The position numbers and the translations under genes are program-made. Below, one piece after another: positions 9,643 through 35,125 of a stretch of DNA of 64,000 nt. Every line of letters starts with the position of its first letter. Positions within the stretch are counted from its first letter, which is position 1. A model generated the notes under the pieces. The model was given only the letters and a program-made list of their open reading frames with translations. It had not been told where the DNA came from and ran no database searches. The DNA is from an uncultured Acidimicrobiia bacterium (GTDB lineage: Bacteria; Actinomycetota; Acidimicrobiia; Spongiisociales; JAENVV01): positions 4 through 64,003 of the forward strand of contig CAZTLW010000001.1 in the NCBI GenBank assembly GCA_964614585.1, in the 5' to 3' direction.

Positions 9643-10998
9643 ATGGCCCACACCGTCGAGGACCTCCCGGCCGCCAAGCAGGCGGCCTATGCCATCGGCC
9701 AGCTCGGCTGGTCGACCCTCATCAACATCGTCGGCGTCTCGCTCGTCTACTTCTACCTGCCCCCTGAGGCGGCCGGACTCCCCCAACTGATCACCGGGGT
9801 GACGTTCCTCGGCGTGCTCAATGCGATCACGCTCATCGCCGCCTCCGGCCGGCTCCTCGACGCCGTCACCGACCCATGGATCGCCGGGCTCAGCGACCGG
9901 TCGACGAACCCACGCGGCCGTCGGATCCCGTTCATGGCCCGGGGCGCCCTGCCCGCCGCGGTGTTCCTGGTGCTCATGTTCACCCCACCGGTCGGCGAGG
10001 TGTCGGGCTGGAACATCGTGTGGCTCGTGGTCGTCCAGGCCGCGTTCTACGTCTCGCTGACCGTCTACGTGACGCCGTTCTTCGCCCTGCTGCCCGAGAT
10101 GGGCCACACCCCCGAGCAGCGCCTCAACCTCAGCACGTGGATCTCCATCACGTTCGCCCTGGGCATCATCCTCGCCGGGCTGGTGCCGGCGATCGCCGAC
10201 GCGGTGGGCACCGGGCTGGGACTCGAACCCCTGCGGGCGTTCCAGGTGGCGATCGGGGGGTTGGCGCTGCTGGCCGTCATCTGCATGTTCGTCCCGGTGC
10301 TGGCCATCGACGAGCGCCGCTACTCCACCGGCCGACCGAGCACGGTCCCGCTGCTGGAGGCCATCCGGGCGACCTTCGCCAACCTGCAGTTCCGCCGGTT
10401 CATCGTCTCGGACTTCGCCTACTTCACCGGGCTCACGATCGTGCAGACCGGTCTCCTGTTCTACGTCACCGTGCTGCTGGGCCAGGAGGAGGCGCTGGTG
10501 GCCACCCTGCTGGCGCTGTTGGTCATCGTGTCGTTCGTCTTCTATCCGATCGTCAACCTCCTCGCCCGCCGAACCGGCAAGAAGCCGCTCATGGTCGGGG
10601 CCTTCGTCTGGATGTCACTCGTCTTTCTCGCCGTCCCCCTGCTGGGCGCCGAGGCGGTCCCGGCCCTCGCCCAGGCCTACCTGTTGGTCCTGCTGCTCTC
10701 GGTGCCCCTGGCCTTCCTCGGGGTGTTGCCCAACGCGGTGCTCGCCGACATCGCCGAGTTCGACGCCAACGAGACGGGCGAGCCCCGGGAGGGCATGTTC
10801 TTCGCGTCCCGCACCCTCATGCAGAAGTTCGGCCAGACGTTCGGGGTGATGAGTTTCGCCATGCTCACCAGCCTCGGTCGCGACGTCGGCGACGACCTGG
10901 GCATCCGCCTGTCGGGCGTCGTCGGCTTCGCCCTGTGCGCCGTCGCCGCCGTGGTCTTCGCCCGCTACGACGAGGCGACGACGACGGCTCGGTCATGA
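9643..10998 (+). CDS. MFS transporter, GPH (glycoside-pentoside-hexuronide:cation symporter)-like
   Basis: 451 aa, ~12 predicted TM segments, MelB-like N-terminus ([16 protein letters not shown]...). Divergent from aroC across a 62-bp intergenic region. Confidence 0.75.
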
Positions 10999-11822: not shown

Positions 11823-12353
11823 TCACTTCAGGATCGACTGCCCGACACTCGCTTCGAAGGTGTTGTCCCCGAACTGGAACACACCCGAGGCGGTCGACCC
11901 GTCATCGGACGGGGTGAGCGAGACGACCTTGAAGTTGCCGGCGAAGGTGTCGCCGACCCCGACGGTGTACTCGACGTTGTCGACCTGTACGACCGCCCGG
12001 GGCACGCCGTCCACCTCATTGACGGACACGAGCCCGAAGGTCAGGCGGTCGCCGGGGTCGGTGGCGCCACCGTCACCGCCATCCGACACGAGTGGTCGGA
12101 ACGGGTCGCGTGGCTGGGCCACCTGGATCGACGTCGAGATCCGGACGCCTTCGCTGAGCGCCGCCGCCGGGGCGGCATCGGCCACCACCGTCTCGGCGTA
12201 CGCCCCGTCGAGGTTCCCGATCGCGGGGGTGTCGGCGCCCAGGACCGTCGGGGCGACGGCCCACCAGGCGGCGGCGAATCCGACCCCGATCAGGAGGATG
12301 GCGAGGGCTGTCGCCAGACCCGAGCGAGGCCGAGGGTTTGCATGCGCTGCCAT
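11823..12353 (-). CDS. pilP: PilP-like type IV pilus assembly protein
   Basis: MAAHANPRPRSGLATALAILLIGVGFAAAWW (signal anchor) ...RDPFRP (PilP-type motif). ATG sits immediately after the pilO stop and is the last gene of pilMNOP. The Arg/Pro-rich N-terminal extension of the ORF was rejected. Confidence 0.6.
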   Translation of the reverse strand: MAAHANPRPRSGLATALAILLIGVGFAAAWWAVAPTVLGADTPAIGNLDGAYAETVVADAAPAAALSEGVRISTSIQVAQPRDPFRPLVSDGGDGGATDPGDRLTFGLVSVNEVDGVPRAVVQVDNVEYTVGVGDTFAGNFKVVSLTPSDDGSTASGVFQFGDNTFEASVGQSILK

Positions 12354-12354
12354 C

Positions 12355-13041
12355 TCAGCCTCCATTCGTTTCCGCCGAGGCACCCTCGGCTTCGTCGACG
12401 GCGTCCTCCGTGTCGGAGGTGGCGTCGTCGGTGGGCGGATCGGCGTCGGACATGCCGTCCCCGCCCGTCCCGAGATCGCCTCCGGGCACGTCGACGACCG
12501 GTGCCGCAATGTCACCCGTGGTGAACGCCGTCGCCTGGATCGTCACGGTGAGCTCGACCGTGTTGTCCTCCACGGCCGGCGAGAACGCCGCCGAGTCCAG
12601 ACGGATCAGCCGGTCGAGGTCCTCCATGCCATACAGGTAGCCGAGGAGCTCGAAGTACTGGCCGGTCACCGAGACCGTCGTCTGGATTTCGTTGTAGCCG
12701 CCCTCGTCGTTCGGCGCCGGGGTGCCGAACGACGCCCCGTTCCAGGTGACGGCCGATTCCGTCGCCAGCGTCTCGAGGGCATTGATGAGCTCGCTCTGGG
12801 ATGGGCTCGCCGGGATCGACGCCTCGAGCTCGCCGACGGCGTCGATGTATTGGAGCTCGGCCTCCTGGATGCGGAGCAGCTCATTGCGCTCGGCGGTCAG
12901 CGCCGCCTCCCGCTGCTGTTCCGACTCCGTCTGGGCGGCGATCTCGTTGGTGTTGTCGATGATCGGGGAGATCACGAGGAACCAGAACCCGGCGGCGACG
13001 AGGATCGCCAGCAGGGTCCCGAGTAGCAGTCGGGCTCTCAT
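12355..13041 (-). CDS. pilO: PilO-like type IV pilus assembly protein
   Basis: MRARLLLGTLLAILVAAGFWFLVISP (single TM), coiled-coil region, acidic C-terminus. Position between pilN and pilP. Internal ATG at 13041 abuts the pilN stop. Confidence 0.7.
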   Translation of the reverse strand: MRARLLLGTLLAILVAAGFWFLVISPIIDNTNEIAAQTESEQQREAALTAERNELLRIQEAELQYIDAVGELEASIPASPSQSELINALETLATESAVTWNGASFGTPAPNDEGGYNEIQTTVSVTGQYFELLGYLYGMEDLDRLIRLDSAAFSPAVEDNTVELTVTIQATAFTTGDIAAPVVDVPGGDLGTGGDGMSDADPPTDDATSDTEDAVDEAEGASAETNGG

Positions 13042-13664
13042 TCGGCCACCTCCGGGATCCGGGTCTCGGCCCGGTCGGACAGGGCCCCACCGGTGATCGA
13101 GGTCGTCAGGTTCCAGGCGACGAGGCTCGCCTCGTCGTCCTCGTTCTGGAGCACGGATGCGGCCCAGGCCCCGGTCACCGAGTCCCAGTCCTGGGAGTCG
13201 AGGGTGAGGAGCCACGACGAGACGTCCGGGTAGTCGAACCCGGAGCCGGCCATGGCGACGCCGCCATAGACGCCGGGCGCCTCCTCGGTCGGGACCCCGG
13301 CGGTGATCGACAGCGACTCCATCCAGACCCGCTTGTCGGAGATCATCCGGCCGAAGTCGCCCAGCAGGCGGCCCCAGGCGACGTCTGCCGCCAGGGCGTG
13401 CCGGACGCGGTCGGCGCCCTGGTCGTAGTCATCACGGAGTTCCCGATAGGGCTCGAGTGCGGCGATCTCCGCCTGGAGTTGGGCGTTCTGGGCCACCTGG
13501 GCGTCGTACTCGGCCTGGGCCGTTGTCTCCTGGCCCTTGAAGAACATGAACACGGCGCCGAGGAGGGCGAGGTAGGCGATGGCCACGAAGGCCGTGCCGA
13601 TCCACCCTCGCCGGGCCTTCTGGGCCTCGGCTCGCTCCTGGGGCAGCAGGTTGATCTTCGACAT
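13038..13664 (-). CDS. pilN: PilN-like type IV pilus (fimbrial) assembly protein
   Basis: MSKINLLPQERAE... INLLP hallmark plus TM helix. Its ATG overlaps the pilM stop (ATGA); an alternative start 5 codons upstream is possible. Confidence 0.75.
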   Translation of the reverse strand: MSKINLLPQERAEAQKARRGWIGTAFVAIAYLALLGAVFMFFKGQETTAQAEYDAQVAQNAQLQAEIAALEPYRELRDDYDQGADRVRHALAADVAWGRLLGDFGRMISDKRVWMESLSITAGVPTEEAPGVYGGVAMAGSGFDYPDVSSWLLTLDSQDWDSVTGAWAASVLQNEDDEASLVAWNLTTSITGGALSDRAETRIPEVAE

Positions 13665-14746
13665 CAGACGAGCCCCCATTCGGCCAGGCCCACCGCCACC
13701 GGCAGCACCGGCTGGGCATGGGCGAGTTGTTCGTCGCTCAACCCCGTCTTGCCGACCTGGACGGACTCCCCCAACAGCTTCACCGGTGTGACGGGCATGT
13801 CGAGGGCCATCCCCATCCGGGTGGCGAGGTGTGGGAGTCGGGCAGCGTTGCCGCTGATCATGAGTTCGCCGACGGCGGCGTCGGCCGACGAGGAGTTGTA
13901 GAACTCCAGCGTCCCGCGAATCTCCTCGATCAACTGGGCCGCCTGTTCGGTGAGGATGTCGCGGGCCCGGTCGTCGGGCATGGACGACGCACCGAAGACG
14001 GCGCCCGGGTCGGCGTGGACGCCCACCCGCCGCTTGACCTCCTCGGCCTCCTCGGGAGCGATCCCGAGTCCGGTCGACAGTGCCCGGGTCATGTCGTTGC
14101 CGCCGATCGGGATGAGGCGCAGGAAGCGGAGAGTGCCGTCCTTGGTGACGATCACCTGGGTCATCCCGGCGCCGAGACTGACGACCGCCTGGGGGGCGTC
14201 CCCGAGCGGGATCCGGGCCCCGAACACCGATCGCACGAGGGCGAACGCCTGCAGGTCGACCGCGTCGACGCGGACACCGGCGGACTCGACGACGCCGAGG
14301 AACTGGTCGATCATCTCCCGTTGGGCGGCGACGACGAGGATGGCCCGTCGGGACTCCTCACCCTCGCCGCCGGGGATGTCCTCGAGCGGCACGAAGTCGA
14401 GGATCGCGTCCTCGGTCGCCATGGGGATGTGCTCGCCGACGTGCTGGGGCAGCGAAGCCCGGAGGGCCTCGTCGCTCATGTCGGGGACCTCCACCCGGCG
14501 GACGATGATCCGCTGGTTGGCGAGTCCCATGACGACGCCCTTCTTGGGTAGCTTCGACGACTTCCAGAGGCGCGAGACGGCGTCCGCCACCACGGCCGGG
14601 TCGACGATCTCACCGCCTTCCACGGCCCCCTTGGGGAGGCCGACCTCCCCGTACTTGCGGAGCACGGGGGCGCCCTTCTTGCCTCCTTGCAGCACGGCAG
14701 CCCTTACGGCGCTCGTGCCGATGTCGAGGCCGACTGTGGCAGTCAT
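13664..14746 (-). CDS. pilM: type IV pilus assembly protein PilM (actin-like ATPase fold)
   Basis: 360 aa, MTATVGLDIGTSAVRAAVL... PilM/FtsA-like family. Heads a pilMNOP operon with overlapping stops and starts. Confidence 0.85.
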   Translation of the reverse strand: MTATVGLDIGTSAVRAAVLQGGKKGAPVLRKYGEVGLPKGAVEGGEIVDPAVVADAVSRLWKSSKLPKKGVVMGLANQRIIVRRVEVPDMSDEALRASLPQHVGEHIPMATEDAILDFVPLEDIPGGEGEESRRAILVVAAQREMIDQFLGVVESAGVRVDAVDLQAFALVRSVFGARIPLGDAPQAVVSLGAGMTQVIVTKDGTLRFLRLIPIGGNDMTRALSTGLGIAPEEAEEVKRRVGVHADPGAVFGASSMPDDRARDILTEQAAQLIEEIRGTLEFYNSSSADAAVGELMISGNAARLPHLATRMGMALDMPVTPVKLLGESVQVGKTGLSDEQLAHAQPVLPVAVGLAEWGLV

Positions 14747-14882
14747 GCCCTCCTCCTGGGTTCGGTCGCGTTCAGGGTCACACGGCTCCGTACATGGGTG
14801 TAATTACCGTTCTGTGATTTCGGAGCGTAGTGGGTGGGTCCGATCGCACCAACGATCGGGGACCCGGCGTCGCGGGATCCGC
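14747..14882 (-). promoter_or_regulatory. putative pilMNOP promoter / 5' leader; also holds a hairpin after the pilD stop
   Basis: Comparatively AT-richer tract gtgtaattaccgttctgtgatttcgg. SD aggaggag precedes the pilM ATG on the minus strand. Hairpin ccgatcg-ttggtg-cgatcgg lies just downstream of the pilD stop. Confidence 0.35.
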
Positions 14883-15695
14883 TCAGCCGAGATAGAGGTC
14901 GAGGAGCTCCGTGCCCGCCACGGTCGCCACCCATGCGGCGACGATCATCGGCGGCCCGAAGGCGAGGTGGTCCTTGCGGCCCCGCCGGCGCAACACCAGC
15001 AGCACGATCGCCGCCAACCCGCCGATCAGGAACGAACCGAATATCGCCACGCCCACCGAGCCGAGCGCTTCGAGCGCTCCCACGGTCGGCTGGCGCACCT
15101 GGAAGGCCACGAAGAGGCCCAACAGGAACGAGAGCTTCACGTCCCCGAAGCCGAAGCCGCCCGGTACCGCGAGGGCCAGGACGAGCATCACCGCGAAGTA
15201 GAGCGCTGCCCCGGCGAAGGCCCACCCCAGCCGGTCGGCGGTCGTCGAGGCGAACGACCCGGCCACCAGCAGCAGCGTCGCCACCACGGTCCCCGGGTAG
15301 ACGATGCGATTCGGCAGTCGGTGCGTGTCCAGGTCGGTGAGGATCAGCGCCACCGTCATCGAGAGCGCCCAGAGGTGGGCGGGCAGCTCCCAGCGGAAGC
15401 CGATGAGCAGCGTCGCCGCCGCCCACAGCAGGCCGGTCGCCAACTCGACCGCCGGGTAGCGCCACGAGATCGGCGCCCGGCAGTGACGGCACTTCCCCAC
15501 CAACAACAACCAGCCGACCACCGGCAGCAGGTCGATCGGCCCGATCGCGTGACCGCAGGCGGGACAATGGGAGCGTCCCATCACCGAGCGGCCGAGCGGG
15601 ATCCGGTAGGCCACCACGTTCACGAACGAGCCGGTCGCCAGGCCGAAGAGGCCCATCGCCGTCGGCCAGAACCAGAGGGGCAGGTCGGCGGTCAT
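14883..15695 (-). CDS. pilD: prepilin peptidase PilD (A24 family aspartic peptidase / N-methyltransferase)
   Basis: 270 aa, N-terminal CPACGH...CRHCRAPI zinc-binding cysteines, multiple TM helices, GFGDVKL-type motif. Confidence 0.85.
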   Translation of the reverse strand: MTADLPLWFWPTAMGLFGLATGSFVNVVAYRIPLGRSVMGRSHCPACGHAIGPIDLLPVVGWLLLVGKCRHCRAPISWRYPAVELATGLLWAAATLLIGFRWELPAHLWALSMTVALILTDLDTHRLPNRIVYPGTVVATLLLVAGSFASTTADRLGWAFAGAALYFAVMLVLALAVPGGFGFGDVKLSFLLGLFVAFQVRQPTVGALEALGSVGVAIFGSFLIGGLAAIVLLVLRRRGRKDHLAFGPPMIVAAWVATVAGTELLDLYLG

Positions 15696-15907
15696 CGGCC
15701 GCGCACCCTAGGGGGGCGTCCGGTCGCGCCGACGCCTTTGGGTCGGTCGTCGCCGTGGTCGCCTCGAGGTCGTGGTGGTGCATGCGTTCCGCTCATTCGC
15801 CGGGCCTCCCAACCCACGAGTGGGTATCGGAGCAAGTCGCGAAACCTTGAGGAGGAACCCTGCCGGGCAGGACTGCGGAACCGCACGACCACCGAGCTCG
15901 GGTCTCG

Positions 15908-15958
15908 GCGGCCCGGGGCAACCGCCAGACGCGAACCGCCCCGGGCCGGTTGGCCCGG
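15908..15958 (-). terminator. intrinsic terminator-like GC hairpin(s) downstream of pilA1
   Basis: cggcccgggg...ccccgggccg 10-bp stem, and ccgggcc-ggtt-ggcccgg perfect 7-bp stem, within 100 nt after the pilA1 stop. Confidence 0.5.
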
Positions 15959-16002
15959 GGCGAGTTCCGTGGTCCCGTGGTTCCGCGGTTCGAGTCGTGT
16001 CG

Positions 16003-16476
16003 CTAGTCCCATCCGCCGACGCACTCGGCGAGGGTGTCGAGCGACGCTCCTCCGGTGAGCGACCGGCCGAAGCGGGTGCCGGTGTTGGAACCGCTCACCT
16101 CGTCGGCGAGGCAGTACCACTCACCCGACTCACTGGCGGTCAGGAAGATGACTGCCTGGTCGGCGGTGCCATCGGTGTTCGGCAGGATCAGGAAGCCGAC
16201 CTGGTCGTCGGCCGGGGCATTGCCGGCCACGAACTCGAGGTTGGCGTGGACGTCGTCGAGGTCGGCGACGGCGAAGCCGTAGTCCTCCTCGTCGGTGTAG
16301 TAGACGCGGGCGGCGGTGAGCGCATTTCGCAAGTCGCTCTGGGCCGACCGGTCCTGGGCTCGGACGCGGGCTCCAAGGAAGACCGGGATGGCGATCGCCA
16401 GGAGAATGGCGATGATCAGGACGACCACCATCAACTCGATCAGCGTGAAGCCCTCGTCCCGCTTGATGCGGGCCAT
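16003..16476 (-). CDS. pilA: type IV major pilin (PilA-type), prepilin with class III signal peptide
   Basis: MARIKRDEG|FTLIELMVVVLIIAILLAIAIP: prepilin cleavage/methylation motif (G-FTLIE). C-terminal Cys pair (disulfide loop). 157 aa. Confidence 0.9.
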   Translation of the reverse strand: MARIKRDEGFTLIELMVVVLIIAILLAIAIPVFLGARVRAQDRSAQSDLRNALTAARVYYTDEEDYGFAVADLDDVHANLEFVAGNAPADDQVGFLILPNTDGTADQAVIFLTASESGEWYCLADEVSGSNTGTRFGRSLTGGASLDTLAECVGGWD

Positions 16477-16548
16477 GGGTTCCCCTCACTCTGGGTTGTC
16501 GAAGTGACCATCGGCCGTGGCGGCCGATTCCTTTAGCCCGAACGCGTC

Positions 16549-16576
16549 GAGGGCGGGGGCCGAAGCCCCCGCCCTC
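16549..16576 (-). terminator. intrinsic terminator hairpin after pilA2
   Basis: gagggcgggggc-cgaa-gcccccgccctc: perfect 12-bp GC stem with a 4-nt loop, 25 nt downstream of the pilA2 stop. Confidence 0.65.
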
Positions 16577-16600
16577 GGACGGTCTAGCTGATGGGTCGGA

Positions 16601-17101
16601 CTACCAGGAGGCGCCGTTGCACTCGCCGGCGGTGTCGACATCGACGAGTGCCGTCTCGCTCGAGGCGAAGAACGTGCCGGAACCGGCACCGGTCGCCGTC
16701 TCGTTGATGCAGAACCAGGTCCCCGACGCCGACTGCTTGGCGAAGGTGATCTGCTGGCGATCGGTACCGGCAACGCTCTCGACCGCATAGCCGACGTTGT
16801 CGGCATCGGACGCAGCGATGGCCACGAACTGCAGGCTCGGCTCGATCGCCTCGAGCTGGGCCACGGTGACGTCGGCCCCAGCGCCGTCCGAGAAGTCCTC
16901 GGTGTCCGTGTAGTGCACCTTCGCCGCCGTGAGGGCGTTCCGAAGGTCCGACTGGGCGGCCCGGTCCTGGGCACGCTCACGGGCACCGAGGAAGGTCGGG
17001 ATGGCGATGGCAATCAGGATGGCGATGATGAGCACCACGACCATCAGCTCGATGAGGGTGAAGCCCTCATCCTTCTTCAGCTGGTTGCGGATCCACGACA
17101 T
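16601..17101 (-). CDS. pilA: type IV pilin paralog (PilA-type), prepilin
   Basis: MSWIRNQLKKDEG|FTLIELMVVVLIIAILIAIAIP... N-terminal 40 aa nearly identical to pilA1, with a C-terminal Cys pair. ~166 aa at the C-terminal end of ORF 16601..17887; the rest of that ORF is antisense to pilC and was rejected. Confidence 0.88.
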   Translation of the reverse strand: MSWIRNQLKKDEGFTLIELMVVVLIIAILIAIAIPTFLGARERAQDRAAQSDLRNALTAAKVHYTDTEDFSDGAGADVTVAQLEAIEPSLQFVAIAASDADNVGYAVESVAGTDRQQITFAKQSASGTWFCINETATGAGSGTFFASSETALVDVDTAGECNGASW

Positions 17102-17343
17102 GTTGTCGTACTCCTTTGTTTGCGTATGGGCGTTGGCGCCCCTTCTCCGATGGTGGATATCGGGGCCGGAGCGCCGGTTCTTGAGGACTTTTCTTCGACG
17201 CTCCGTGGTCGAAGGACCACGCAGCAACCCGACGCGAGACCACGGGATCCGGCATGGGCGCCGGTACCCGATACCCGAGACCGCGCCACGCGCCGGGGCC
17301 CCGACCGATCGGCCGGGGCCCCGTCCGTCGCAGGCGCCAGCGC
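17102..17343 (-). promoter_or_regulatory. pilA2 promoter / leader region (242-bp intergenic)
   Basis: Largest intergenic gap in the pil cluster. SD aggag lies 7 nt before the pilA2 ATG. A separate terminator after pilA2 implies independent, probably high-level transcription of the pilins. Confidence 0.4.
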
Positions 17344-18567
17344 CTACTGGACCAGGTTGACGATGTTGAACATCGGCAGGTAGAGGGCGATGAGCATGCC
17401 GCCGACCACGCCGCCGAGCACCACGATGAGGAGCGGCTCGATGAGGCTCGTGAGCCCCTCGACCATCGTCTCGACCTCGTTGTCGTAGAACTCGCCGATC
17501 TTCTCGAGCATCGTGTCGAGGGCGCCGGTCTCCTCGCCGACGGCCACCATCTGGACGACCATCGGCGGGAAGATCTTCCGCTCGGCCATCGGCTTGGCGA
17601 TCGACTCGCCCTCCGAGACCGAGGCCCGGGAGGCCATCACGGCTTCCTCGACCACGGCGTTGCCCGAGGTCTCCGCCACGATCTCCATGGCCTGGAGGAT
17701 CGGGACACCGCTCTTGGTGAGGGCGGCCATCGTCTGGGCGAATCGGGCGAGTGCGGACTTGTGGATGAGCTTGCCGAAGATGGGCATGCGGAGCTTGATG
17801 CTGTCCCAGGCGTAGCGGCCGCCCTCGGTCTGCTTCCACCGCCGGAACACGACCCAACTCACGATCCCACCGAGGACGGCGACCCACCAGAACGAGGTGA
17901 GGAAGCCCGAGATGGCCAGCAGGATCTGGGTGGGCACCGGCAGCGACGCCCCACCGAGGTCGGCGTAGAGGCCGTCGAACATCGGGACGATGAAGATGAG
18001 CATGGCGGCGGTGATCAGCACCACGAGCACCGCCACGGCCATCGGGTACATCATCGCCGAGCGGATCTTGTTCTTCAGCGCAACCTGGGCCTCGAGCGTG
18101 TCGGCGAGGCGGAGCAGGGAGTCGTCGAGGAGGCCGCCCGTCTCGCCGGATCGCACCATCGAGACGTAGAGCTTGCTGAACACCTTCGGGTGGGCCTCGA
18201 GGGCCTGGCTGAGGCTCTTGCCCTGCTCCACGTCCGTCTTCACGCCGAGGATCACCTCGGCGAGTGTCGTGTTCTCGGTCTGCTCGGCGAGGATCGAGAG
18301 CGCCCGCAGCAGCGAGAGACCCGACGCGATCATCGTGGCGAACTGGCGGCTGAAGACCGCCACCTCCTTGGCGGCCACCCGGTCGGTGATCCCGGGGATG
18401 CGGACCTCGCCGCTCAGCCCCGCCGCATCGGTCTCCTCGAGGGTGACCGGCTTGAGCCCCTTCTGGGCGAGCTCGCGGGCGGCCGCCTCGGCGTTGACGG
18501 CCGACACCTTCCCGTTCTTGACCCGGCCCTTGTCGTCCTGGGCCTTGTAGGCGTATGTCGTGGCCAT
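17344..18567 (-). CDS. pilC: type IV pilus inner-membrane platform protein PilC (GspF family)
   Basis: 407 aa, two GspF-type repeats, ...MMYPMAVAVLVVLITAAML...PILQAMEIVAETSGN... Confidence 0.9.
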   Translation of the reverse strand: MATTYAYKAQDDKGRVKNGKVSAVNAEAAARELAQKGLKPVTLEETDAAGLSGEVRIPGITDRVAAKEVAVFSRQFATMIASGLSLLRALSILAEQTENTTLAEVILGVKTDVEQGKSLSQALEAHPKVFSKLYVSMVRSGETGGLLDDSLLRLADTLEAQVALKNKIRSAMMYPMAVAVLVVLITAAMLIFIVPMFDGLYADLGGASLPVPTQILLAISGFLTSFWWVAVLGGIVSWVVFRRWKQTEGGRYAWDSIKLRMPIFGKLIHKSALARFAQTMAALTKSGVPILQAMEIVAETSGNAVVEEAVMASRASVSEGESIAKPMAERKIFPPMVVQMVAVGEETGALDTMLEKIGEFYDNEVETMVEGLTSLIEPLLIVVLGGVVGGMLIALYLPMFNIVNLVQ

Positions 18568-18577
18568 GGGCTACCTC

Positions 18578-20170
18578 CTAGGCGACGCGTCCGAGCAGGC
18601 GCCGCAGGTCCTCGATGTTGGTGCAGCGCTCGACTGCGGTGTCGAAGTCGATGACGTTCTGGCGGACCAGGTGCGCGAGCGACTGGTCCATCGTCTGCAT
18701 GCCGTGCTTGCCGCCGGCCTGCATCGCGGTGGTGATCTGGTGGATCTTCGCCTCCCGGATGAGGTTCCGGATCGCCGGCGTCGCCAGCATCACCTCGGTC
18801 GCCACCGCCCGCGAGCGGCGGTCACGCGTGGGCAGGAGCTGCTGGGTGACGATCGCCTGGATCGTCGCGGCCAACTGGACCCGCACCTGCGACTGCTGGT
18901 GGCTGGGGAACACGTCGATGATCCGGTCGATCGACTGGGGGGCGTCCTGGGTGTGCAGGGTGGCGAACACGAGGTGGCCGGTCTCGGCGGCGGTCAGCGC
19001 GGTCTGGATCGTCTCGAGGTCGCGCATCTCGCCCACGAGGATCACGTCGGGGTCCTGGCGCAGGGCGTGCTTGAGGGCGGCGCCGAAGTCCATGGTGTCC
19101 GCACCCACCTCGCGCTGGTTCACCAGCGCCCGCTTGTGGGTGTGGACGAACTCGATCGGGTCCTCGATCGTGAGGATGTGGCACGACCGCCGCAGGTTGA
19201 TCTGGTCGATGATCGATGCCAAGGTCGTCGACTTGCCCGAACCGGTCGGCCCGGTGACGAGCACGAGCCCGCGGGGATACTCGGCAAACCCGTCGAGCAC
19301 CTTCGGGAGGCCGAGCTCCCCGAGCGGCTTGACCACCTCGGGGATGGCCCGGAAGACGGCGCCGACGGCGTCGCGCTGGAAGAAGACGTTCATCCGGAAG
19401 CGGGCATGGCCGGGCACGGGGTGGGAAGCGTCGAGTTCGAGCGTGTTCTCCAGCGTCTCGCGCTGCTTCTCGGTGAGGATCGAGTAGATCATGGCCCGCA
19501 ACTCGGCCGGGGTGAGGACGTCGTAGTCCTCCAGCGCCGTGAGGTGCCCATTGATGCGCACGATCGGCTTGGTGCCGGCGGTCAGGTGCAGGTCGGAGCC
19601 GGCCCGTTCGAGCAACTCGAGGAGCAGCGTGTTCGGATGGACCCGGGGGATCTCGTCCTGGCGGGCCGCGGCGATGCGTTCGGCGTCCCCGCCGACCCCG
19701 GGGGGGAGTTCGACGCCGAAGATCCCGTCGATCGCCTTCTCGATGGCTCGCGCCGGGGCGACGGCGACCCGGATGCCACACCCGGCCCGTGCCTCCACCC
19801 GGTCGAGGACCTCCTCGTCGTAGGGGTCGGCGACGGCCACCTTCAGCTCGTTGCCGACCATCTCGATCGGCACGACCTGGAGGGCGCGGCAGGTGTCGGC
19901 GTCGAGGCGGTGGACGATGTCGGGGGCGAAGATGATGCCCTCGAGGTCGACGTACTCGAGGCCCACCCGGGCGGCGAAGACCCGGACGAGGTCCGCCTCG
20001 AGCACCAGGCCCTCGGAGACGACGAGCTCGTCGAACGAGGTGCCGGTCTCCTCCTCGAGGGCGAGCAGTCGCTCGAGTTGGTCGCGCGAGAGGAGACGCT
20101 GGTCGACCAGCAGTTCGCCGAGGGTTCGTGAGTGGTTCGCCATGTCCCGTTGCTCCTTCGTCCGTACCAA
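18578..20170 (-). CDS. pilT: twitching-motility retraction ATPase PilT with N-terminal MshEN/T2SSE_N-like domain
   Basis: C-terminal region carries Walker A GPTGSGKSTT, IEDPIEF, and AIRNLIREAK (PilT/PilU signature). The N-terminal ~170 aa has tandem RTLGELLVDQRLLSRDQLERLL / FDELVVSEGLVLEADLVRVFAARVGL motifs resembling MshEN. Start may be the ATG at 20143. Confidence 0.85.
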   Translation of the reverse strand: MVRTKEQRDMANHSRTLGELLVDQRLLSRDQLERLLALEEETGTSFDELVVSEGLVLEADLVRVFAARVGLEYVDLEGIIFAPDIVHRLDADTCRALQVVPIEMVGNELKVAVADPYDEEVLDRVEARAGCGIRVAVAPARAIEKAIDGIFGVELPPGVGGDAERIAAARQDEIPRVHPNTLLLELLERAGSDLHLTAGTKPIVRINGHLTALEDYDVLTPAELRAMIYSILTEKQRETLENTLELDASHPVPGHARFRMNVFFQRDAVGAVFRAIPEVVKPLGELGLPKVLDGFAEYPRGLVLVTGPTGSGKSTTLASIIDQINLRRSCHILTIEDPIEFVHTHKRALVNQREVGADTMDFGAALKHALRQDPDVILVGEMRDLETIQTALTAAETGHLVFATLHTQDAPQSIDRIIDVFPSHQQSQVRVQLAATIQAIVTQQLLPTRDRRSRAVATEVMLATPAIRNLIREAKIHQITTAMQAGGKHGMQTMDQSLAHLVRQNVIDFDTAVERCTNIEDLRRLLGRVA

Positions 20171-20216: not shown

Positions 20217-21899
20217 TCAGACCGTGACCCGGAGGACCTCCTCGAGGCTGGTGTCGCCCGCGGCCACCTTGCGGAGCCCGTCGACGCGCAGCGGCGTCAT
20301 GCCCTGCTCGAGCGCCTTGTGGGTGAGCGCCTCCGTGGTGGCGTGCTGGACCACCATCCGCTCCACGTCCTCGGTCATCGTCATGAGTTCGTGCACCGCC
20401 ATGCGTCCCCGGTAGCCGGTGCCGGCGCACGCCGTGCAACCCACCGCCCGAAAGATGGTGGCGTTCCCGCCGGGGTCGACCACGGCCGGGTCCCACCCGA
20501 TGCGGTCCAGGGCGTCCTGGGTGGGCTCGTGCGGCTCCTTGCACTTCGTGCACAGGCGCCGGGCGAGGCGCTGGGCGAGCACGGCGTCGAGCGCCGACCC
20601 CACGAGGAACGGCTCCACGCCCATCTCGATGAGGCGGCTGACGGCGGCAGGCGCCGTGTTGGTGTGGAGGGTCGACAGCACCAGGTGACCGGTCAGCGCC
20701 GATTCGATGGCGATGTTGGCCGTCTCGAGGTCCCGGATCTCGCCCACCAGCATGATGTCGGGGTCCTGGCGGAGGAAGGAGCGGAGGGCGTTGGCGAAGC
20801 CGAGCCCCGCCTTGCGGTTGACCTGCACCTGGTTGACACCGGCGAGCCGGTACTCGACGGGGTCCTCCACGGTGACGATGTTGCGCTCGGCGTCGTTGAG
20901 CACGTTGAGGGTGGCGTACAGCGTCGTCGACTTGCCGGAGCCGGTGGGGCCGCACACGAGGATCGTGCCGTAGGGCCGGCGAAACGCGTCCTGGTAGCGC
21001 TCGAGGTTGTCGTGGTGGAAGCCGAGATCGGTGAGGTCCAGCATTGCCGTCGAGTTGTCGAGGATCCGCATGACGACCTTCTCCCCGTAGATCGTGGGGA
21101 GGGTGGAGACACGGAGGTCGACCGACCCGCTGGGGGTCTTCACCGAGATGCGGCCGTCCTGGGGACGACGACGCTCGGCGATGTCGATGTCGGCCATGAT
21201 CTTCAGGCGGGACACCACCCCGGCGAGGAGCCGGCGATTGGTGCGCATCACCTCGTGGAGCACACCGTCGATTCGGTAGCGGACGCGGACGTCGTGGTCG
21301 CCGGGCTCGACGTGGATGTCGGAGGCGCCATCGCTCACTGCTTTGAGGATCACCTGGTTGACGAACTTGACGATCGGGGCGTCCGCGGACGCGGCCTCGA
21401 CCGCGGCCAGGTCCTCCACGTCGATGCCGTCCTCCGACGACCCGACGAAGTCGCTGACGGCGTCCTCGAGCGAACCGAGGCGCTTCACGACCGCATCGAT
21501 GTCGGGCTTCATCGCCACGTGCAGGTCGATCGATCGCCCGGTGGCGGCCTGGATGTCGTCCTTGGCGAGGATGTCGTAGGGGTTGGCGGTGGCGACGAGC
21601 AGCTTCTCGCCGTCGAAGGCGTAGGGGATCGCCTGGTGCTTGCGAGCCAACGGCTCCGGCAGGAGGGCGGCGGCAGCGGGGTCGACGGTGATCTCGCCGA
21701 GGTCGACGAACTGGTAGCCCATGTGCTTGGCGATGACCCGAACGAGCGTCTTCTCGTCGACCAACGACTCCGCCACGACGTACTTGGACAGGGTCATGCC
21801 TGCCGTCTCGGCCGCGTCGGCGGCCGAGTACAACTGGTCGTAGGTGAGCAGGCCCTCCTCGATGAGGACGGCTGCGACACCGGCCTGTTCCTCGGTCAT
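20217..21899 (-). CDS. pilB: type IV pilus assembly (extension) ATPase PilB (GspE family)
   Basis: 560 aa, N-terminal T2SSE_N-like region (LIEEGLLTYDQLYSAADAAETAG), Walker A GPTGSGKSTT, VEDPVEY, tetracysteine CTKC...CTAC motif. Confidence 0.9.
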   Translation of the reverse strand: MTEEQAGVAAVLIEEGLLTYDQLYSAADAAETAGMTLSKYVVAESLVDEKTLVRVIAKHMGYQFVDLGEITVDPAAAALLPEPLARKHQAIPYAFDGEKLLVATANPYDILAKDDIQAATGRSIDLHVAMKPDIDAVVKRLGSLEDAVSDFVGSSEDGIDVEDLAAVEAASADAPIVKFVNQVILKAVSDGASDIHVEPGDHDVRVRYRIDGVLHEVMRTNRRLLAGVVSRLKIMADIDIAERRRPQDGRISVKTPSGSVDLRVSTLPTIYGEKVVMRILDNSTAMLDLTDLGFHHDNLERYQDAFRRPYGTILVCGPTGSGKSTTLYATLNVLNDAERNIVTVEDPVEYRLAGVNQVQVNRKAGLGFANALRSFLRQDPDIMLVGEIRDLETANIAIESALTGHLVLSTLHTNTAPAAVSRLIEMGVEPFLVGSALDAVLAQRLARRLCTKCKEPHEPTQDALDRIGWDPAVVDPGGNATIFRAVGCTACAGTGYRGRMAVHELMTMTEDVERMVVQHATTEALTHKALEQGMTPLRVDGLRKVAAGDTSLEEVLRVTV

Positions 21900-21927: not shown

Positions 21928-23190
21928 TCAGTCGCCGAGGGAGCTCAGTTCCTTGGCGAGGAGGCCCTTGGAGCGTCGCCTGAGCAGGTTCGGCAGGCCC
22001 CCGTTGGACTCTTCCTCGACGGCGGGTTCGTCGTCGGCGTCCCCGTCGTCGTCGACGGGCTCGTCGGCGGGCTCGTCGGCGGGCTCGTCCGCGTCCCCGT
22101 CGGCGTCCCCGTCGACCGCCTCGGCGTACTCGCCGGAGGCATCGTCGTCGACGCCCAGTTGAGCGAGCGCGTCCTCTTCGTGCATGGCCGCCACGTCGTC
22201 GTCGATCTCGTCGAGGGCCTCGTCCTGGTCGTCCTCGTCGTCGGCCCGGATGCCGGGCTTGGGGGCGTAGCCCTTGAGGCCGAAGTCGACGCCGGAGTCC
22301 TCGTCGCCGTCGCCCGCCCCTTCTGCGAGCGGGAAGGGCTCGGCGTCCATCAACGGCGGCTCCTCCTCGGGTTCCGGCTCGTCGGTGGCGGCGATGGACA
22401 CCAACTCGTTGGTCCAACCGGTGGGCCCCTCGGCCGACAGCGGGTCCTCGTCGACCTCGACGCCGGGGAACCGGTCCAACCCGCCGGTGGCCCGGCCGGC
22501 CCGGACGTTGTCGCCGACCCAGGCCAGCCCGCGGCTCACGAACGCGGCGACCTTGGAAGCGGCGTCGAACTCGCTCTCGCCGGTGTGCGACGACAGGCGC
22601 TTGACGGTGGTCCCCGACGCGATGAGGCCGAGCAGGGACCATTCGTCCTGGTTCAGCTCGACGAACTCGCTGCCCTCGGGCAGGCTCTCGGCGAGGTGGA
22701 TGCGGGCCGTCATGGACGGCACGATCTCGCGGATGGCGTTCCAGGCCCGGAGCCGCTCGTCGACCTCGTCGAGGGTGTCGTCGATGGAGAGTTCGGTGCC
22801 GAGGCGGATCGAGGTGGTGACGCCCTCCTCGAACTCGAACGAGCCCTGGCGGCGGCGCATGATCTCGACGAAGGCGTCGACCGTGAGGGAGCGGACGGCT
22901 CGGTCGTAGTCGAGCGGCGAGACCTCGTCCGTGAGGAGCTCGTCGGCCGACACGTCACCCGAGGAGACCTGCTCCCAGCCGTCCCGGTCCAACAACCCCC
23001 CACCGACGAGGCGGGACTTCACGGCCCGCTCGTCGCCCGCGCAGGCGAACAGCAGTCGACCGCCCTGCAAGTAGGCCCGCATCTCCTGGTCATCCGCCTT
23101 CACGAGCAACAGGCCCGTCTGTCCCGAGCGGCCGAGCAGGCGCAGGACCTCGGGCAGGGGGAATGAATCCAGGGTGCCCGACAACGCCAT
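21928..23190 (-). CDS. DUF4388 (PATAN-like) domain protein with long acidic C-terminal tail
   Basis: N-terminus MALSGTLDSFPLPEVLRLLGRSGQTGLLLV matches the DUF4388 signature. The C-terminal ~150 aa is extremely D/E-rich. First gene of the pil cluster. Confidence 0.7.
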   Translation of the reverse strand: MALSGTLDSFPLPEVLRLLGRSGQTGLLLVKADDQEMRAYLQGGRLLFACAGDERAVKSRLVGGGLLDRDGWEQVSSGDVSADELLTDEVSPLDYDRAVRSLTVDAFVEIMRRRQGSFEFEEGVTTSIRLGTELSIDDTLDEVDERLRAWNAIREIVPSMTARIHLAESLPEGSEFVELNQDEWSLLGLIASGTTVKRLSSHTGESEFDAASKVAAFVSRGLAWVGDNVRAGRATGGLDRFPGVEVDEDPLSAEGPTGWTNELVSIAATDEPEPEEEPPLMDAEPFPLAEGAGDGDEDSGVDFGLKGYAPKPGIRADDEDDQDEALDEIDDDVAAMHEEDALAQLGVDDDASGEYAEAVDGDADGDADEPADEPADEPVDDDGDADDEPAVEEESNGGLPNLLRRRSKGLLAKELSSLGD

Positions 23191-23230
23191 CGGTTTGAAC
23201 CTCCTTGTCTAGGAGGTGAATCGGCCTCGC

Positions 23231-24016
23231 TCAGGAGCCCCTTGAGTGCTTTGCCGCGGCGGCCATCGCCTCGACGGGCGGCTCGGCAGCGAACCAGAGG
23301 GCGAACGCGGCTGCGGCCTGGCCGACGAGCATGTCGAGCCCCCAACCGATGGGGAGGCCGTTGGCTCGGGCGCGGCTGACGGCCGGCGTCACCTCGGGTG
23401 CGTAGACCATCTCGAACAGGCCGGCAGCCTCTTCCACGACCCCGTCGGGCAGGTCGTCGCCGGCCATCCCGATCGGGGTCGCGTTGACGACGACAGCACC
23501 GGTGAGTGGCTCACCCCACGCCAGTGCGCCGGCCGCTCCCAGCGAGTCGAGGGCCGCGGCGGCCTCGGGGCGGCGGGCGGCCACCCAGACCTCGTGCCGG
23601 CCGGCGAGGACGTCCACCGCCGCGCGAGCCGCTCCCCCGGCCCCAAGGACCAGCACCGGGGCGTCGATGGGCAGCCCACCCCTCGCCCAGGCGTGCAGCA
23701 CGCCCGCGCCGTCGGTGGCGTGGCCGACGACCCGACCGCCGTCGACGTCGAGGGTGTTGAGCGCCCCCAGCCGCGCCGCCACCGGGTCGAGGCGGTCGAC
23801 GAGGCCGACGGCGGCGGACTTGTGGGGCATGGTCACGTTGGCCCCGTCCAGACGCCCTCGACGCAGGTCCTCGATGGCGGCGGCGAGCCCGGCGGGGTCG
23901 ACGTCGCGACGGCCGTAGGTGGCGTCGAGGTCCAACTCGGCGTAGGCGGCCTCGTGGATGGCGGGTGACAGGGAGTGGGCGACCGGATGGCCGAGGACGA
24001 CGAACCGCCGGGTCAC
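23231..24016 (-). CDS. aroE: shikimate dehydrogenase AroE
   Basis: 261 aa, MTRRFVVLGHPVAHSLSPAIHEAAY...NVTMPHK...VLGAGGAARA. Confidence 0.9.
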   Translation of the reverse strand: MTRRFVVLGHPVAHSLSPAIHEAAYAELDLDATYGRRDVDPAGLAAAIEDLRRGRLDGANVTMPHKSAAVGLVDRLDPVAARLGALNTLDVDGGRVVGHATDGAGVLHAWARGGLPIDAPVLVLGAGGAARAAVDVLAGRHEVWVAARRPEAAAALDSLGAAGALAWGEPLTGAVVVNATPIGMAGDDLPDGVVEEAAGLFEMVYAPEVTPAVSRARANGLPIGWGLDMLVGQAAAAFALWFAAEPPVEAMAAAAKHSRGS

Positions 24017-33424: not shown

Positions 33425-35125
33425 TCAGGGGATGGTGGTCGTCGTCACCACTCCCTCGATCCGACCCCACGGCGGGAGTGGGTCCTCCTGCCAGTCCTCG
33501 TAGCGCCACTGGTCGACCAGCAGCGGCCAGAAGGGCGGACGGAGGAAGGCGAGGCGGTCGTCGAACTGGTAGTTGCGGACCGAGAACAGGGCGGAGCCCG
33601 ACATCGCCGACGTGCTCCGCGACGCCCGCGATCCGTGGAAGTCGAGCACCGAGTTGGGCGGGGTCACGCCGTTGCCGCTGTTGCGCCCGCAGGCCCGGGA
33701 GGTGAAGTTGGAGTTGGGGGACTGGCCGAGCCAGGCGACCCAGGTCTCGAGTTCCCGGTCGACCGTCGAGATCGCATACGGGTTGATGGCGATCGACTCC
33801 GAAGCCGCCAACCCGAGGACGTCGGTGAACCCGGTCTCGTTGCTCAGGAGGATGTCGGCGTTGATCGTGATGTTCTTCGAGTCGGCCGACGAACCGGCGT
33901 AGACCGTGAGCCCGCCCTTCATGACGATCTCCTTGAATCCGTCGCCGTTGGAGTCGGTGGCCGACGGGAACCCCCGGTAGCCCATGACGACCGCCTCGTT
34001 GGCCCACACCACCCCGGCGTCGGGGTACTCGACGTCGTCCCACAGGGTCCAGAGGTCGCTGAACGCGCCGGCAGGGGCCGGCGTCGTCGATCCGTTGCGG
34101 CCCTCCTCGGGCAGCGCCGGCTCGGGGTTGAGGATCCACCACTCGTCGCTGTTCAGACAGGAGTTGGTGGGCGGGTTGACCGTCGACTTCCAGATCGCGA
34201 TCCGACCGATGCCGGCGGAGACGTACGGATGGAGCATCCAGGCGGTGGCGTCGGCATCGTCGAGGCAGATGCCGGCCCCGGCGTCACAGGCAACCCCCCG
34301 GATGAGGTCGAGGTCGTCCCAGAAGTTGTTGAAGTCGAGCGGCTCGGGGAACACTTCGCGGATGTCCTCGTGCTCGCCCCGCCCGTCGTACAACACGGCG
34401 TCGTCGCGGACGATCGGCTCGCTGAAGATCTGATCCTCGGCGTAGATGTTGTAGAAGGTCTCGTTGTCCGAGGCGAAGTCGAGGTCGTCCCCGGAATAGA
34501 CGGGACCGTTGAGGATGGCGCCGGACCCGAAGGAGATGTCGCCTTCGGCCACCCGGGCGAACTCCGACAGGGCGGTGGCCCGCACCGACGCCGAGATGGC
34601 CCGACGGTTCACCGAGTCACCGCGCCGGCCGACCACGGTCACCCGCACGGGCTCGCCGTCACCCGGGGGCGCGACCTCCATCATCACGGCCGCGTCCTTG
34701 GATCCGAGGGTGGCGGGGTCGCCGTCCTGGTCGAAGAGCGGGTGCACCCACCAGTCGGGTCGGCCGTCGCCATCGCCGTCGGGAGGATCGACGTAGTCCC
34801 ACGTCCCACACGAGTCGTCCCAGTCCGAGCCGGGGTCGAATGAAACGCCCAGCGAGACGGACGAAACATCGGTGCAGACCCGGGTGCGCTCGGCCTCGTC
34901 CACTCGGTGGAAGTAGTAGGCGGGATCGAGGGTCAGCTTGGTGGCGTAGCGCTCGAGCATGGCCTCCGTCGCCGCGAGGGTGACGTCCTCCTGCTCCTGG
35001 AACGACGCCTGGCGCACCTCGCGCACCGACAACTGGGCGAGGAGCACGGAGAAGCCCATGATGACGGTGCCGATGAGAATGGCGGTGATGAGGGCGGTCC
35101 CCTCGTCGCGACGGAGGTCACGCAT
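33425..35125 (-). CDS. large PilX-like / TadG-like putative minor pilin or pilus-associated protein
   Basis: 566 aa. N-terminus MRDLRRDEGTALITAILIGTVIMGFSVLLAQL resembles PilX_N/TadG N-terminal hydrophobic segments. Large Trp/Asp-rich extracellular region. Confidence 0.55.
   Translation of the reverse strand: MRDLRRDEGTALITAILIGTVIMGFSVLLAQLSVREVRQASFQEQEDVTLAATEAMLERYATKLTLDPAYYFHRVDEAERTRVCTDVSSVSLGVSFDPGSDWDDSCGTWDYVDPPDGDGDGRPDWWVHPLFDQDGDPATLGSKDAAVMMEVAPPGDGEPVRVTVVGRRGDSVNRRAISASVRATALSEFARVAEGDISFGSGAILNGPVYSGDDLDFASDNETFYNIYAEDQIFSEPIVRDDAVLYDGRGEHEDIREVFPEPLDFNNFWDDLDLIRGVACDAGAGICLDDADATAWMLHPYVSAGIGRIAIWKSTVNPPTNSCLNSDEWWILNPEPALPEEGRNGSTTPAPAGAFSDLWTLWDDVEYPDAGVVWANEAVVMGYRGFPSATDSNGDGFKEIVMKGGLTVYAGSSADSKNITINADILLSNETGFTDVLGLAASESIAINPYAISTVDRELETWVAWLGQSPNSNFTSRACGRNSGNGVTPPNSVLDFHGSRASRSTSAMSGSALFSVRNYQFDDRLAFLRPPFWPLLVDQWRYEDWQEDPLPPWGRIEGVVTTTTIP

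Follow-up and report, generated by a model that had tools for sequence, protein, structure and literature searches.

A stand-alone PATAN protein with an acidic linker that ends in a conserved basic peptide, at the head of an actinobacterial type IV pilus cluster

We describe a stand-alone PATAN (DUF4388) protein encoded at the head of the type IV pilus (pil) cluster of an uncultured Acidimicrobiia bacterium, in a 64,000-nucleotide (nt) stretch of DNA that we call the window (GenBank assembly GCA_964614585.1, contig CAZTLW010000001.1, positions 4 to 64,003 of the forward strand). The protein combines a folded N-terminal module, a long acidic linker and a conserved basic peptide at its C-terminus, and genes for related proteins are found beside pilB, which encodes the extension ATPase, at the same aroE-linked site elsewhere in the phylum. 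By analogy with cyanobacterial PATAN proteins we read it, with moderate confidence, as a pilus-motor accessory protein, either an adaptor or a regulator.

To our knowledge, hardly any work has been done on the type IV pili of Actinomycetota, and their motor has no known regulator. Formally PATAN still counts as a domain of unknown function, and the only mechanistic data that we know of come from cyanobacterial PATAN-REC regulators (REC, receiver domain). We found no paper on PATAN proteins in Actinomycetota, and a review of PilB cofactors makes no mention of PATAN (PMC11656802). The analysis points to a stand-alone PATAN protein as a fixed component of the aroE-linked pilus locus across Actinomycetota, and it links the family with MglA/MglB-like genes of Coriobacteriia and Frankiales. 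It also defines an architecture of folded module, acidic linker and putative docking peptide, which makes constructs and partners concrete. With a known domain family and an expected association with pili, the result is a useful lead for actinobacterial pilus biology and not a surprise.

Architecture of the PATAN protein

The open reading frame (ORF) at 21928-23190 is a real gene (Table 1). On the minus strand it begins with ATG (23190-23188) and ends with TGA (21930-21928), and its GC content at the three codon positions (0.75/0.44/0.94) is typical for real genes of the ~70% GC window. In the alignment, the N-terminus MALSGTLD matches residue 1 of all full-length homologues. A preliminary description of this DNA had recognised a DUF4388 (PATAN-like) protein from an N-terminal signature. 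The signature that it quoted is found exactly at residues 5-30, GTLDSFPLPEVLRLLGRSGQTGLLLV, and the profile search bears out the identity: Pfam PF14332 (DUF4388, now PatA_N) matches over the whole model (positions 1-122) with 59.3 bits (E=4.9e-16), over a gathering score of 25. All 20 homologues from a word-indexed search carry a precomputed PF14332 annotation, and NCBIfam has no model for DUF4388. After aa (amino acid) 151 neither Response_reg nor any other Pfam or NCBIfam domain was found. Without a REC domain the protein does not qualify as a PatA-type response regulator.

Two AlphaFold runs, from alignments of 24 and 53 sequences, were concordant. Both predict one confident fold for aa 1-226, with a predicted local distance difference test (pLDDT) score of 92-97, composed of the PATAN core, an alpha-helical insertion and a winged-helix-like subdomain. 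A structure search found no solved PATAN structure for comparison. The PATAN domain covers 148 residues over the 122 positions of the Pfam model. Compared with insertion-less relatives, such as the L022, L029 and P0155 proteins, the insertion is a block of ~45-55 aa, with predicted helices at 54-63, 69-76, 82-85 and 92-111. The subdomain that follows lies outside the Pfam model and is predicted as helices 181-191, 196-203 and 207-219 with a strand at 223-225. Across the wide family W184 is invariant and G204 nearly so (at least 90%); F118, R146 and W150 of the folded module are family-invariant too.

The PATAN insertion is reported to resemble the N-terminal alpha-clip repeats of PilB-type ATPases (Han et al., bioRxiv 10.1101/2021.06.11.447907). 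MshEN repeats were searched with NCBIfam NF053729, a model of the MshE-type c-di-GMP (cyclic di-GMP) motif, which describes the tandem 24-residue motif RLGxx(L/V/I)(L/V/I)xxG(L/V/I)(L/V/I)xxxxLxxxLxxQ and has a cutoff of 38 bits. The model matched the insertions of relatives P0114 (43.5 bits), P0017 (30.6) and P0085 (17.4), and the P0114 and P0017 sequences fit RLGxxLVxxG(V/Y)IxxxxLxxxVxxQ. For the window protein and for P0013, P0025 and P0033 there was no match even at E<=1. In the alignment the window insertion is ~10 residues shorter and has neither the RLG start nor the second motif's central glycine. When the insertion was compared by hhalign with the MshEN N-termini of the local PilB and PilT, the expected register was recovered, albeit not significantly (P=9e-4 to 6e-3, probability 6-23%); the N-termini of these two ATPases score 21.7 and 35.9 bits with NF053729, respectively. 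Canonical binding of c-di-GMP by the window protein is unlikely on this evidence. With no receiver domain and only a degenerate MshEN-like insertion, the protein is probably not switched by phosphorylation or by c-di-GMP.

The linker (aa 227-395) consists of 36.7% D/E and 3.6% K/R, with a net charge of -56; that of the whole protein is -69. Its most acidic 126-aa stretch (aa 270-395) has 42.9% D/E and a net charge of -51; the runner-up 126-aa stretch among the 42 predicted window proteins has 25.4%, and the median whole-protein value is 14.5%. The acidity is far above chance for the genome. AlphaFold predicts aa 229-400 as disordered, with pLDDT mostly < 50. An acidic C-terminus of ~150 aa had been pointed out before as an unusual feature, and the extreme acidity holds, with the quoted acidic string matching residues 360-394 exactly. 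The length is 126-169 aa, depending on the boundaries chosen, and the stretch stops short of the C-terminus: residues 396-420, 25 in all, are basic/hydrophobic and highly conserved. Nor is the region an oddity of the window protein, being instead a composition-conserved linker across the family that ends in a conserved motif.

Invariant islands interrupt the linker in a subfamily alignment of 16 members that are 36-89% identical overall: DPLxxxGPxGWxNEL (249-263), PPL (279-280) and FGLxG (303-307). In the first of these P250, L251, G255, P256, G258, W259, N261, E262 and L263 are invariant in all 16 sequences; within FGLKGYAPKP (303-312) G304, L305 and G307 are, and P312 nearly so. A 12-nt tandem repeat coding (ADEP)n suggests slippage as a source of linker-length change. 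The repeat is also a likely cause of linker-length differences between strains. Taken together, the region is best described as a composition-conserved acidic spacer with short linear motifs, apparently capped by a docking peptide.

That peptide is the basic 25-aa motif LPNLLRRRSKGLLAKELSSLGD at the end of the linker, which is conserved like the PATAN domain. Within it L402, L403, R404, R405, R406, G409, L411, A412, E414, L415, S417, L418 and D420 are invariant in the subfamily. Mean pairwise identity is 0.89 for the PATAN domain among close members (0.75 among all 16), 0.73 (0.55) for aa 152-226, 0.31 (0.24) for linker residues 269-395 and 0.87 (0.78) for the C-terminal 25 residues. Conservation close to that of the domain, but at the far end of a linker at 0.31, is the signature of a tethered docking peptide. 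Residues 402-418 are predicted helical with low confidence (pLDDT 55-60, about 55 in the 53-sequence run) and are unpacked on the folded part in both AlphaFold models. That the peptide is left undocked on its own fold, even with 53 sequences, weakly favours a partner in trans. Among the 168 family proteins collected, 53 end in [LMIV][LMRK][RK]RR..G; their linkers are 62-325 aa long (median 153), with median values of 31% D/E, 3% K/R and a net charge of -45. Since LLRRR..G endings and acidic linkers occur together in these 53 proteins, the three-part layout is a family trait. Other branches end in related short helices, either NRGLLLKFLSSVRS or LLLRLIAGVRGL and DLVxRLIDGVKGL.

Several likenesses of the peptide were considered and rejected. 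Compared with the Protein Data Bank, the sole match is the IGF-II E-peptide at E=1.3, a chance similarity. The PilM-binding N-terminal peptide of PilN offers little, as the window PilN (MSKINLLPQER) shares only NLL with LPNLLRRR. Some members carry RRRGLGxL, similar to the N-terminal RRGLGRGL of ParB, but the window protein has RRRSKGLL, and the window genes that were scanned include no ParA/MinD-like gene. The LLRRR variants are too polar for a membrane-targeting amphipathic helix; in other classes an amphipathic character is conceivable for the variants LLLKFLSSVRS and LLLRLIAGVRGL.

Genomic context of the gene and its relatives

The PATAN gene is the first gene of the pil cluster and lies directly 5' of pilB in the same orientation, in agreement with the preliminary description. 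Both genes are on the minus strand, 28 nt apart. The gap to aroE on the other side is 40 nt. With gaps of this size and no terminator-like site near, co-transcription of aroE, the PATAN gene and pilB is indicated. A scan found neither a sigma-70-like promoter nor a terminator flanking the PATAN gene; the promoter scan is uninformative for high-GC actinobacteria.

The word-indexed search returned 20 homologues at E<=1e-3, called 'hypothetical protein' wherever named. An exhaustive profile search returned 3025 cluster representatives at E<=1e-3, but no more than 1107 at E<=1e-10 and 20 at E<=1e-30, which indicates a narrow orthologous group within a large family. The 168 family proteins are the 20 from the word-indexed search and the 148 top representatives of the exhaustive search. 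Genomic context was taken from 4 loci in genomes, 42 in metagenomes and 6 obtained by exact protein look-up, and neighbours were identified by tblastn with the window proteins and by Pfam. The genome loci (L001-L004) came from a scan with the subfamily alignment and belong to metagenome-assembled genomes (MAGs) labelled Acidimicrobiia and one unclassified MAG; these four are too few and too closely related to split co-conservation from shared descent. Being the loci closest to the window, they fit its probable origin in Acidimicrobiia.

Among the loci that reach far enough upstream, almost all have the PATAN gene immediately after alaS-ruvX-mltG-aroE. The window protein belongs to a class, here called the LLRRR class, with PATAN and winged helix, an acidic linker, the ending [LM][LMRK][RK]RR..G and aroE immediately 5' (window, L001-L004, L006, L008-L010 and L013-L015). 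In this class an intact pilB directly follows in 9 of 12 informative loci (window, L001-L004, L009, L010, L013 and L016). The order aroE-PATAN-pilB-pilT-pilC is present in L001-L004, L010, L013 and L016, and L009 ends inside pilB. Across these eight loci the PATAN protein is 29-69% identical and PilB 61-83%. All 8 LLRRR-class loci that reach pilT (window, L001-L004, L010, L013 and L016) encode a PilT extended by an MshEN domain; the L005 PilT is without the extension.

Outside this class, the gene is found beside pilB in L052 (aroE-PATAN-PilB) and in L005 (aroE-PilB-PATAN-GTPase-PilB-PilT-PilC). Two loci of a Coriobacteriia MAG (L049/L050) and one of a Frankiales MAG (L051) have the order aroE-(PilB)-Roadblock/LC7-PATAN-small Ras-like GTPase-PilB. 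The Roadblock/LC7-PATAN-GTPase genes lie at 7259-10605 in L049 (GAB4273414.1), at 668-2918 in L051 (MCW2605588.1) and at 10001-11773 in L005. The L005 GTPase is 49% identical to those of L049/L051, and its P-loop reads GPSRAGTTT and not GPFNAGKTT, with the lysine lost. With the Roadblock and GTPase proteins of L049, L051 and L005 as tblastn queries, neither the window nor any LLRRR-class locus gave a match.

Two divergent classes are without the insertion and end in ..P(I/V)(S/T)(F/Y)(I/L)GSF (for example ..ISFIGSF) or ..DPAFR. The contigs of insertion-less loci L022, L029, L031-L034, L037, L039, L043 and L046 have 54-74% GC, and in those with full flanks (L022, L029, L032, L034, L037, L043 and L046) the PATAN gene starts at 10001.

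Co-location with pilB in the four genome loci L001-L004, in the metagenome loci L009, L010, L013 and L016 and in the more distant L005 and L049-L052 supports co-conservation with the pil genes. As judged from these sequences, the PATAN gene is co-conserved with pilB wherever the cluster survives and can outlive the cluster, in altered form in the longer-diverged cases. The pilus cluster and the PATAN gene were probably ancestral at the aroE-linked site in the phylum.

Proposed function and alternative explanations

In Synechocystis, all tested PatA-type regulators bind PilB1, most bind the N-terminal domain of PilC and none binds PilT1. For PixE, the PATAN domain by itself is enough to bind PilB1, to localise to the membrane and to reverse phototaxis; fusions of PATAN with GspE_N and MglA/MglB neighbourhoods are also on record (bioRxiv 10.1101/2021.06.11.447907). 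By this precedent the window protein most likely binds PilB. In the accessory role that we favour, aa 1-226, with PATAN, insertion and winged-helix-like parts, would bind PilB, with the N-terminal MshEN region as the probable site; the cytoplasmic N-terminal domain of PilC is perhaps bound too, and binding would modulate where or when pili assemble. A regulator or polar-localisation factor for the pilus, as the preliminary description proposed, is plausible, and the MglB-like and MglA-like genes beside relatives lend it support. We infer that the ~170-aa acidic disordered linker serves as a flexible spacer of variable length and that it carries the basic C-terminal peptide, LLRRRSKGLLAKELSSL, to a docking site on a second partner in trans. 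The co-occurrence with MshEN-bearing PilT is suggestive of MshEN domains as candidate partners of the peptide.

Several observations weigh against a dedicated role at the pilus motor. The precedent for PATAN-PilB binding was set by PATAN-REC proteins of a distant phylum. The loci are phylogenetically non-independent, and the synteny could largely be shared descent within one phylum. In L006 and L014 the prepilin peptidase gene (pilD) alone is kept before aroC, and the LLRRR motif is intact. L008 (10001-13900) encodes an intact 772-aa PATAN protein with RRRSRGLLSKELSSLND, followed by a truncated pilB' of 142 aa (MshEN positions 1-64 of 90). As pilB' is joined straight to a PilO-like ORF and then aroC, an internal deletion from pilB to pilO is indicated; an orthologue with the LLRRR motif thus persists beside the remnant of the deletion. 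Finally, in 9 distinct loci the insertion-less classes stand between aroE and aroC without any pil genes. PATAN genes beside pil remnants or without pil genes mean that the link to the pilus is not obligatory at the locus level, and survival of the family after local loss of pilus genes suggests a wider or different role.

These points lend themselves to another explanation, in which the protein would be a general cell-polarity or envelope scaffold that happens to lie beside the pilus insertion site and has its main partner outside the pilus machine. The best-conserved neighbourhood is indeed alaS-ruvX-mltG-aroE and not pil, the gene is kept with pil remnants (L006, L014, L008) or with no pil genes at all (L022/23 and the other insertion-less loci), Anabaena PatA is found at division planes, and some PATAN proteins serve functions apart from pili (Han et al., bioRxiv 10.1101/2021.06.11.447907). 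We consider such a scaffold unlikely, albeit worth keeping in mind: pil genes or their remnants adjoin every informative locus with an insertion-bearing protein, MglB/MglA/PilB sets surround relatives, and the pil-less branch, without the insertion and with a changed C-terminal motif, may have changed function. An improbable alternative is that the acidic tail is a functionless low-complexity extension made by slippage and that the N-terminal module alone matters. The 12-nt repeat coding (ADEP)n would fit, as would the free variation of linker sequence and length between 62 and 325 aa, but acidic composition is kept in 53 diverged representatives, the linker always ends in the conserved basic motif, and DPLxxxGPxGWxNEL and FGLxG are kept without change throughout the subfamily.

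The winged-helix-like subdomain (aa 160-226) raises the question of a DNA-binding regulator of pil transcription. It has a three-helix-plus-strand topology in the AlphaFold models, and its best domain-sized Foldseek match is a winged helix (2yu3; probability 0.66, template modelling score 0.49, E=0.67, not significant). Relatives give weak helix-turn-helix (HTH) matches, namely HTH_20 at 17.3 bits in the L010 orthologue, under the cutoff of 27, and ArsR- and Csa3-type matches at E 0.01-0.06 in P0025; DNA binding had also been predicted earlier for PatA-type regulators (per Han et al.). We regard this function as quite improbable. No HTH family of Pfam or NCBIfam reaches threshold for the window protein, the strong negative net charge is unfavourable, the putative recognition helix (aa 207-219, EFDAASKVAAFVS) has one basic residue, and Han et al. 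argue against DNA binding after observing membrane localisation and PilB binding (bioRxiv 10.1101/2021.06.11.447907). A shade less probable again is a c-di-GMP receptor in which the insertion, as an MshEN-type nucleotide-binding module, relays a second-messenger signal to PilB; the NF053729 matches in P0114 (over the cutoff), P0017 and P0085 speak for it, but the RLG start and central glycine are missing from the shorter window insertion, which shows neither a match at E<=1, like P0013, P0025 and P0033, nor a significant hhalign score.

A bolder version of the accessory role, which we hold to be rather doubtful, is that proteins with PATAN, acidic linker and LLRRR ending form a phylum-wide, unrecognised class of pilus-motor adaptors of the monoderm Actinomycetota. 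The degenerate clip would mimic, or pair with, the MshEN domains of PilB and of MshEN-bearing PilT, and the peptide would engage a second site, so that extension and retraction could be arbitrated without MglA/MglB, phosphorylation or c-di-GMP. The distribution of MshEN-bearing PilT, universal in the LLRRR-class loci that reach pilT and not seen in L005, fits such a class.

The surrounding locus and known systems

On the minus strand of the window the genes follow one another as aspS, mgsA, alaS, ruvX, mltG, aroE, the PATAN gene, pilB, pilT, pilC, a pilin gene, a prepilin peptidase gene, pilM, pilN and pilO (Table 1). No secretin gene lies in the pil locus of the window, and none is expected in a monoderm. 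The extra MshEN domain of PilT is ~170 aa long, its NF053729 score lies near the cutoff, and the likely true start of the protein is M10 (MANHS...). A c-di-GMP-sensing retraction motor would be unusual. Beyond pilO follow a membrane protein without a Pfam match, an MFS transporter on the opposite strand, and then aroC, aroB, efp and nusB. The membrane protein, encoded by the last gene of the pil operon (11823-12515, minus), has 230 aa and one predicted membrane helix, and could be PilP-like or a novel alignment-complex component. The MFS_2 transporter (9643-10998, plus) breaks the co-directional block between the pil operon and aroC. The ORF called aroB (6919-8136, minus) has its dehydroquinate synthase domains only from residue 126 onwards. 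The 125 N-terminal codons before them may stem from a mis-called start or may be a shikimate kinase, either separate or fused. No Rfam family reached its gathering score anywhere in the window (1-64000).

Table 1. Coordinates of the PATAN gene, its parts and the neighbouring aroE and pil genes in the window
Feature	Position	Strand	Basis
PATAN gene, whole (420-aa product and stop)	21928-23190	minus	ORF and translation
Shine-Dalgarno sequence AAGGAGG	23200-23206	minus	read from sequence; 9 nt 5' of the PATAN ATG
PATAN / DUF4388 domain, aa 4-151	22738-23181	minus	Pfam PF14332; AlphaFold pLDDT 92-97
Alpha-helical insertion in the PATAN domain, ~aa 53-112	22855-23034	minus	degenerate MshEN-like 'alpha-clip'
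Winged-helix-like subdomain, aa 152-226	22513-22737	minus	pLDDT > 90
Acidic intrinsically disordered linker, aa 227-395	22006-22512	minus	composition; pLDDT mostly < 50
Linear motif DPLSAEGPTGWTNEL in the linker, aa 249-263	22402-22446	minus	subfamily alignment
Linear motif FGLKGYAPKP in the linker, aa 303-312	22255-22284	minus	subfamily alignment
12-nt tandem repeat coding (ADEP)n, 4.8 copies, 86% matches	22049-22105	minus	Tandem Repeats Finder
Basic C-terminal motif NGGLPNLLRRRSKGLLAKELSSLGD, aa 396-420	21931-22005	minus	subfamily alignment
aroE (shikimate dehydrogenase)	23231-24016	minus	Shikimate_dh_N 88 bits and SDH_C; 40-nt gap to PATAN gene
pilB, extension ATPase with N-terminal MshEN	20217-21899	minus	T2SSE 468.5, MshEN 66.9, TIGR02538 645.6 bits
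pilT-family ATPase with extra N-terminal MshEN	18578-20143	minus	TIGR01420 476.8 bits (cutoff 319), Pfam MshEN 60.6
Rest of the pil operon	12355-18567	minus	Pfam T2SSF, N_methyl, A24_N_bact/Peptidase_A24, PilM_2, PilO
pilC	17344-18567	minus	Pfam T2SSF
Pilin gene	16003-16476	minus	Pfam N_methyl
Prepilin peptidase gene (pilD)	14883-15695	minus	Pfam A24_N_bact/Peptidase_A24
pilM	13664-14746	minus	Pfam PilM_2
pilN	13038-13679	minus	N-terminus MSKINLLP
pilO	12355-13050	minus	Pfam PilO

Three adjacent minus-strand ORFs with prepilin-like N-termini occupy 33425-37372, at a distance of 10 kb from the main pil operon; relA flanks them on one side and an MBL-fold gene/hisS on the other. The first (539 aa, 35753-37372) reads DDDG/FSIIESMVALAMLAV and matches N_methyl at 16.9 bits, under the cutoff; the second (~214 aa inside 35118-36014) reads DERG/TTLMEAFVASVV, and the third (566 aa, 33425-35125) RRDEG/TALITAILIG. 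Pfam gives no other match for them, and they may be large minor pilins or a tip adhesin.

The window protein resembles the cyanobacterial PatA-type regulators (PixE, PixG, LsiR and PilG of Synechocystis, PatA of Anabaena) in its N-terminal PATAN domain with insertion and in its link to type IV pili. In those regulators PATAN is the output module, which binds PilB1 and PilC's N-terminal domain (bioRxiv 10.1101/2021.06.11.447907). Unlike them, the window protein has no REC domain and is not encoded in a chemotaxis-like operon; it has a winged-helix-like subdomain, a ~170-aa acidic linker and a basic peptide instead, and heads an actinobacterial pil structural operon. The proposed role, that of a small cytoplasmic binder controlling recruitment or activity of the extension ATPase, is similar to that of PilZ/FimX (Pseudomonas, Xanthomonas) and CpiA (PMC11656802), but these belong to unrelated folds and families, and no c-di-GMP motif was detected in the window protein. 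The insertion is the same kind of paired alpha-helical 'clip' repeat as the MshEN/GspE_N domains of MshE, PilB and PilF; insertions of relatives are recognised by NF053729, and PilB and PilT of the operon both carry MshEN. It differs from these in that the window motif is degenerate and undetected by the model, and in its location within another domain and not at the N-terminus of an ATPase.

In Myxococcus, PATAN proteins have been tied to S-motility and to MglA/MglB neighbourhoods, and the stand-alone PATAN proteins SgnC, MXAN_3211 and MXAN_4965, tied to spatial control of type IVa pili, are similar to the window protein in this respect (Han et al., bioRxiv 10.1101/2021.06.11.447907; PMC11580455). 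The likeness to MglA/MglB-linked PATAN proteins extends to the actinobacterial relatives in L049-L051 and L005, which adjoin Roadblock/LC7 and/or GTPase genes by pilB. These GTPase-linked relatives carry a hydrophobic LLxRLIxGVxxL ending, in contrast to the Arg-rich LLRRRxxG of the LLRRR class.

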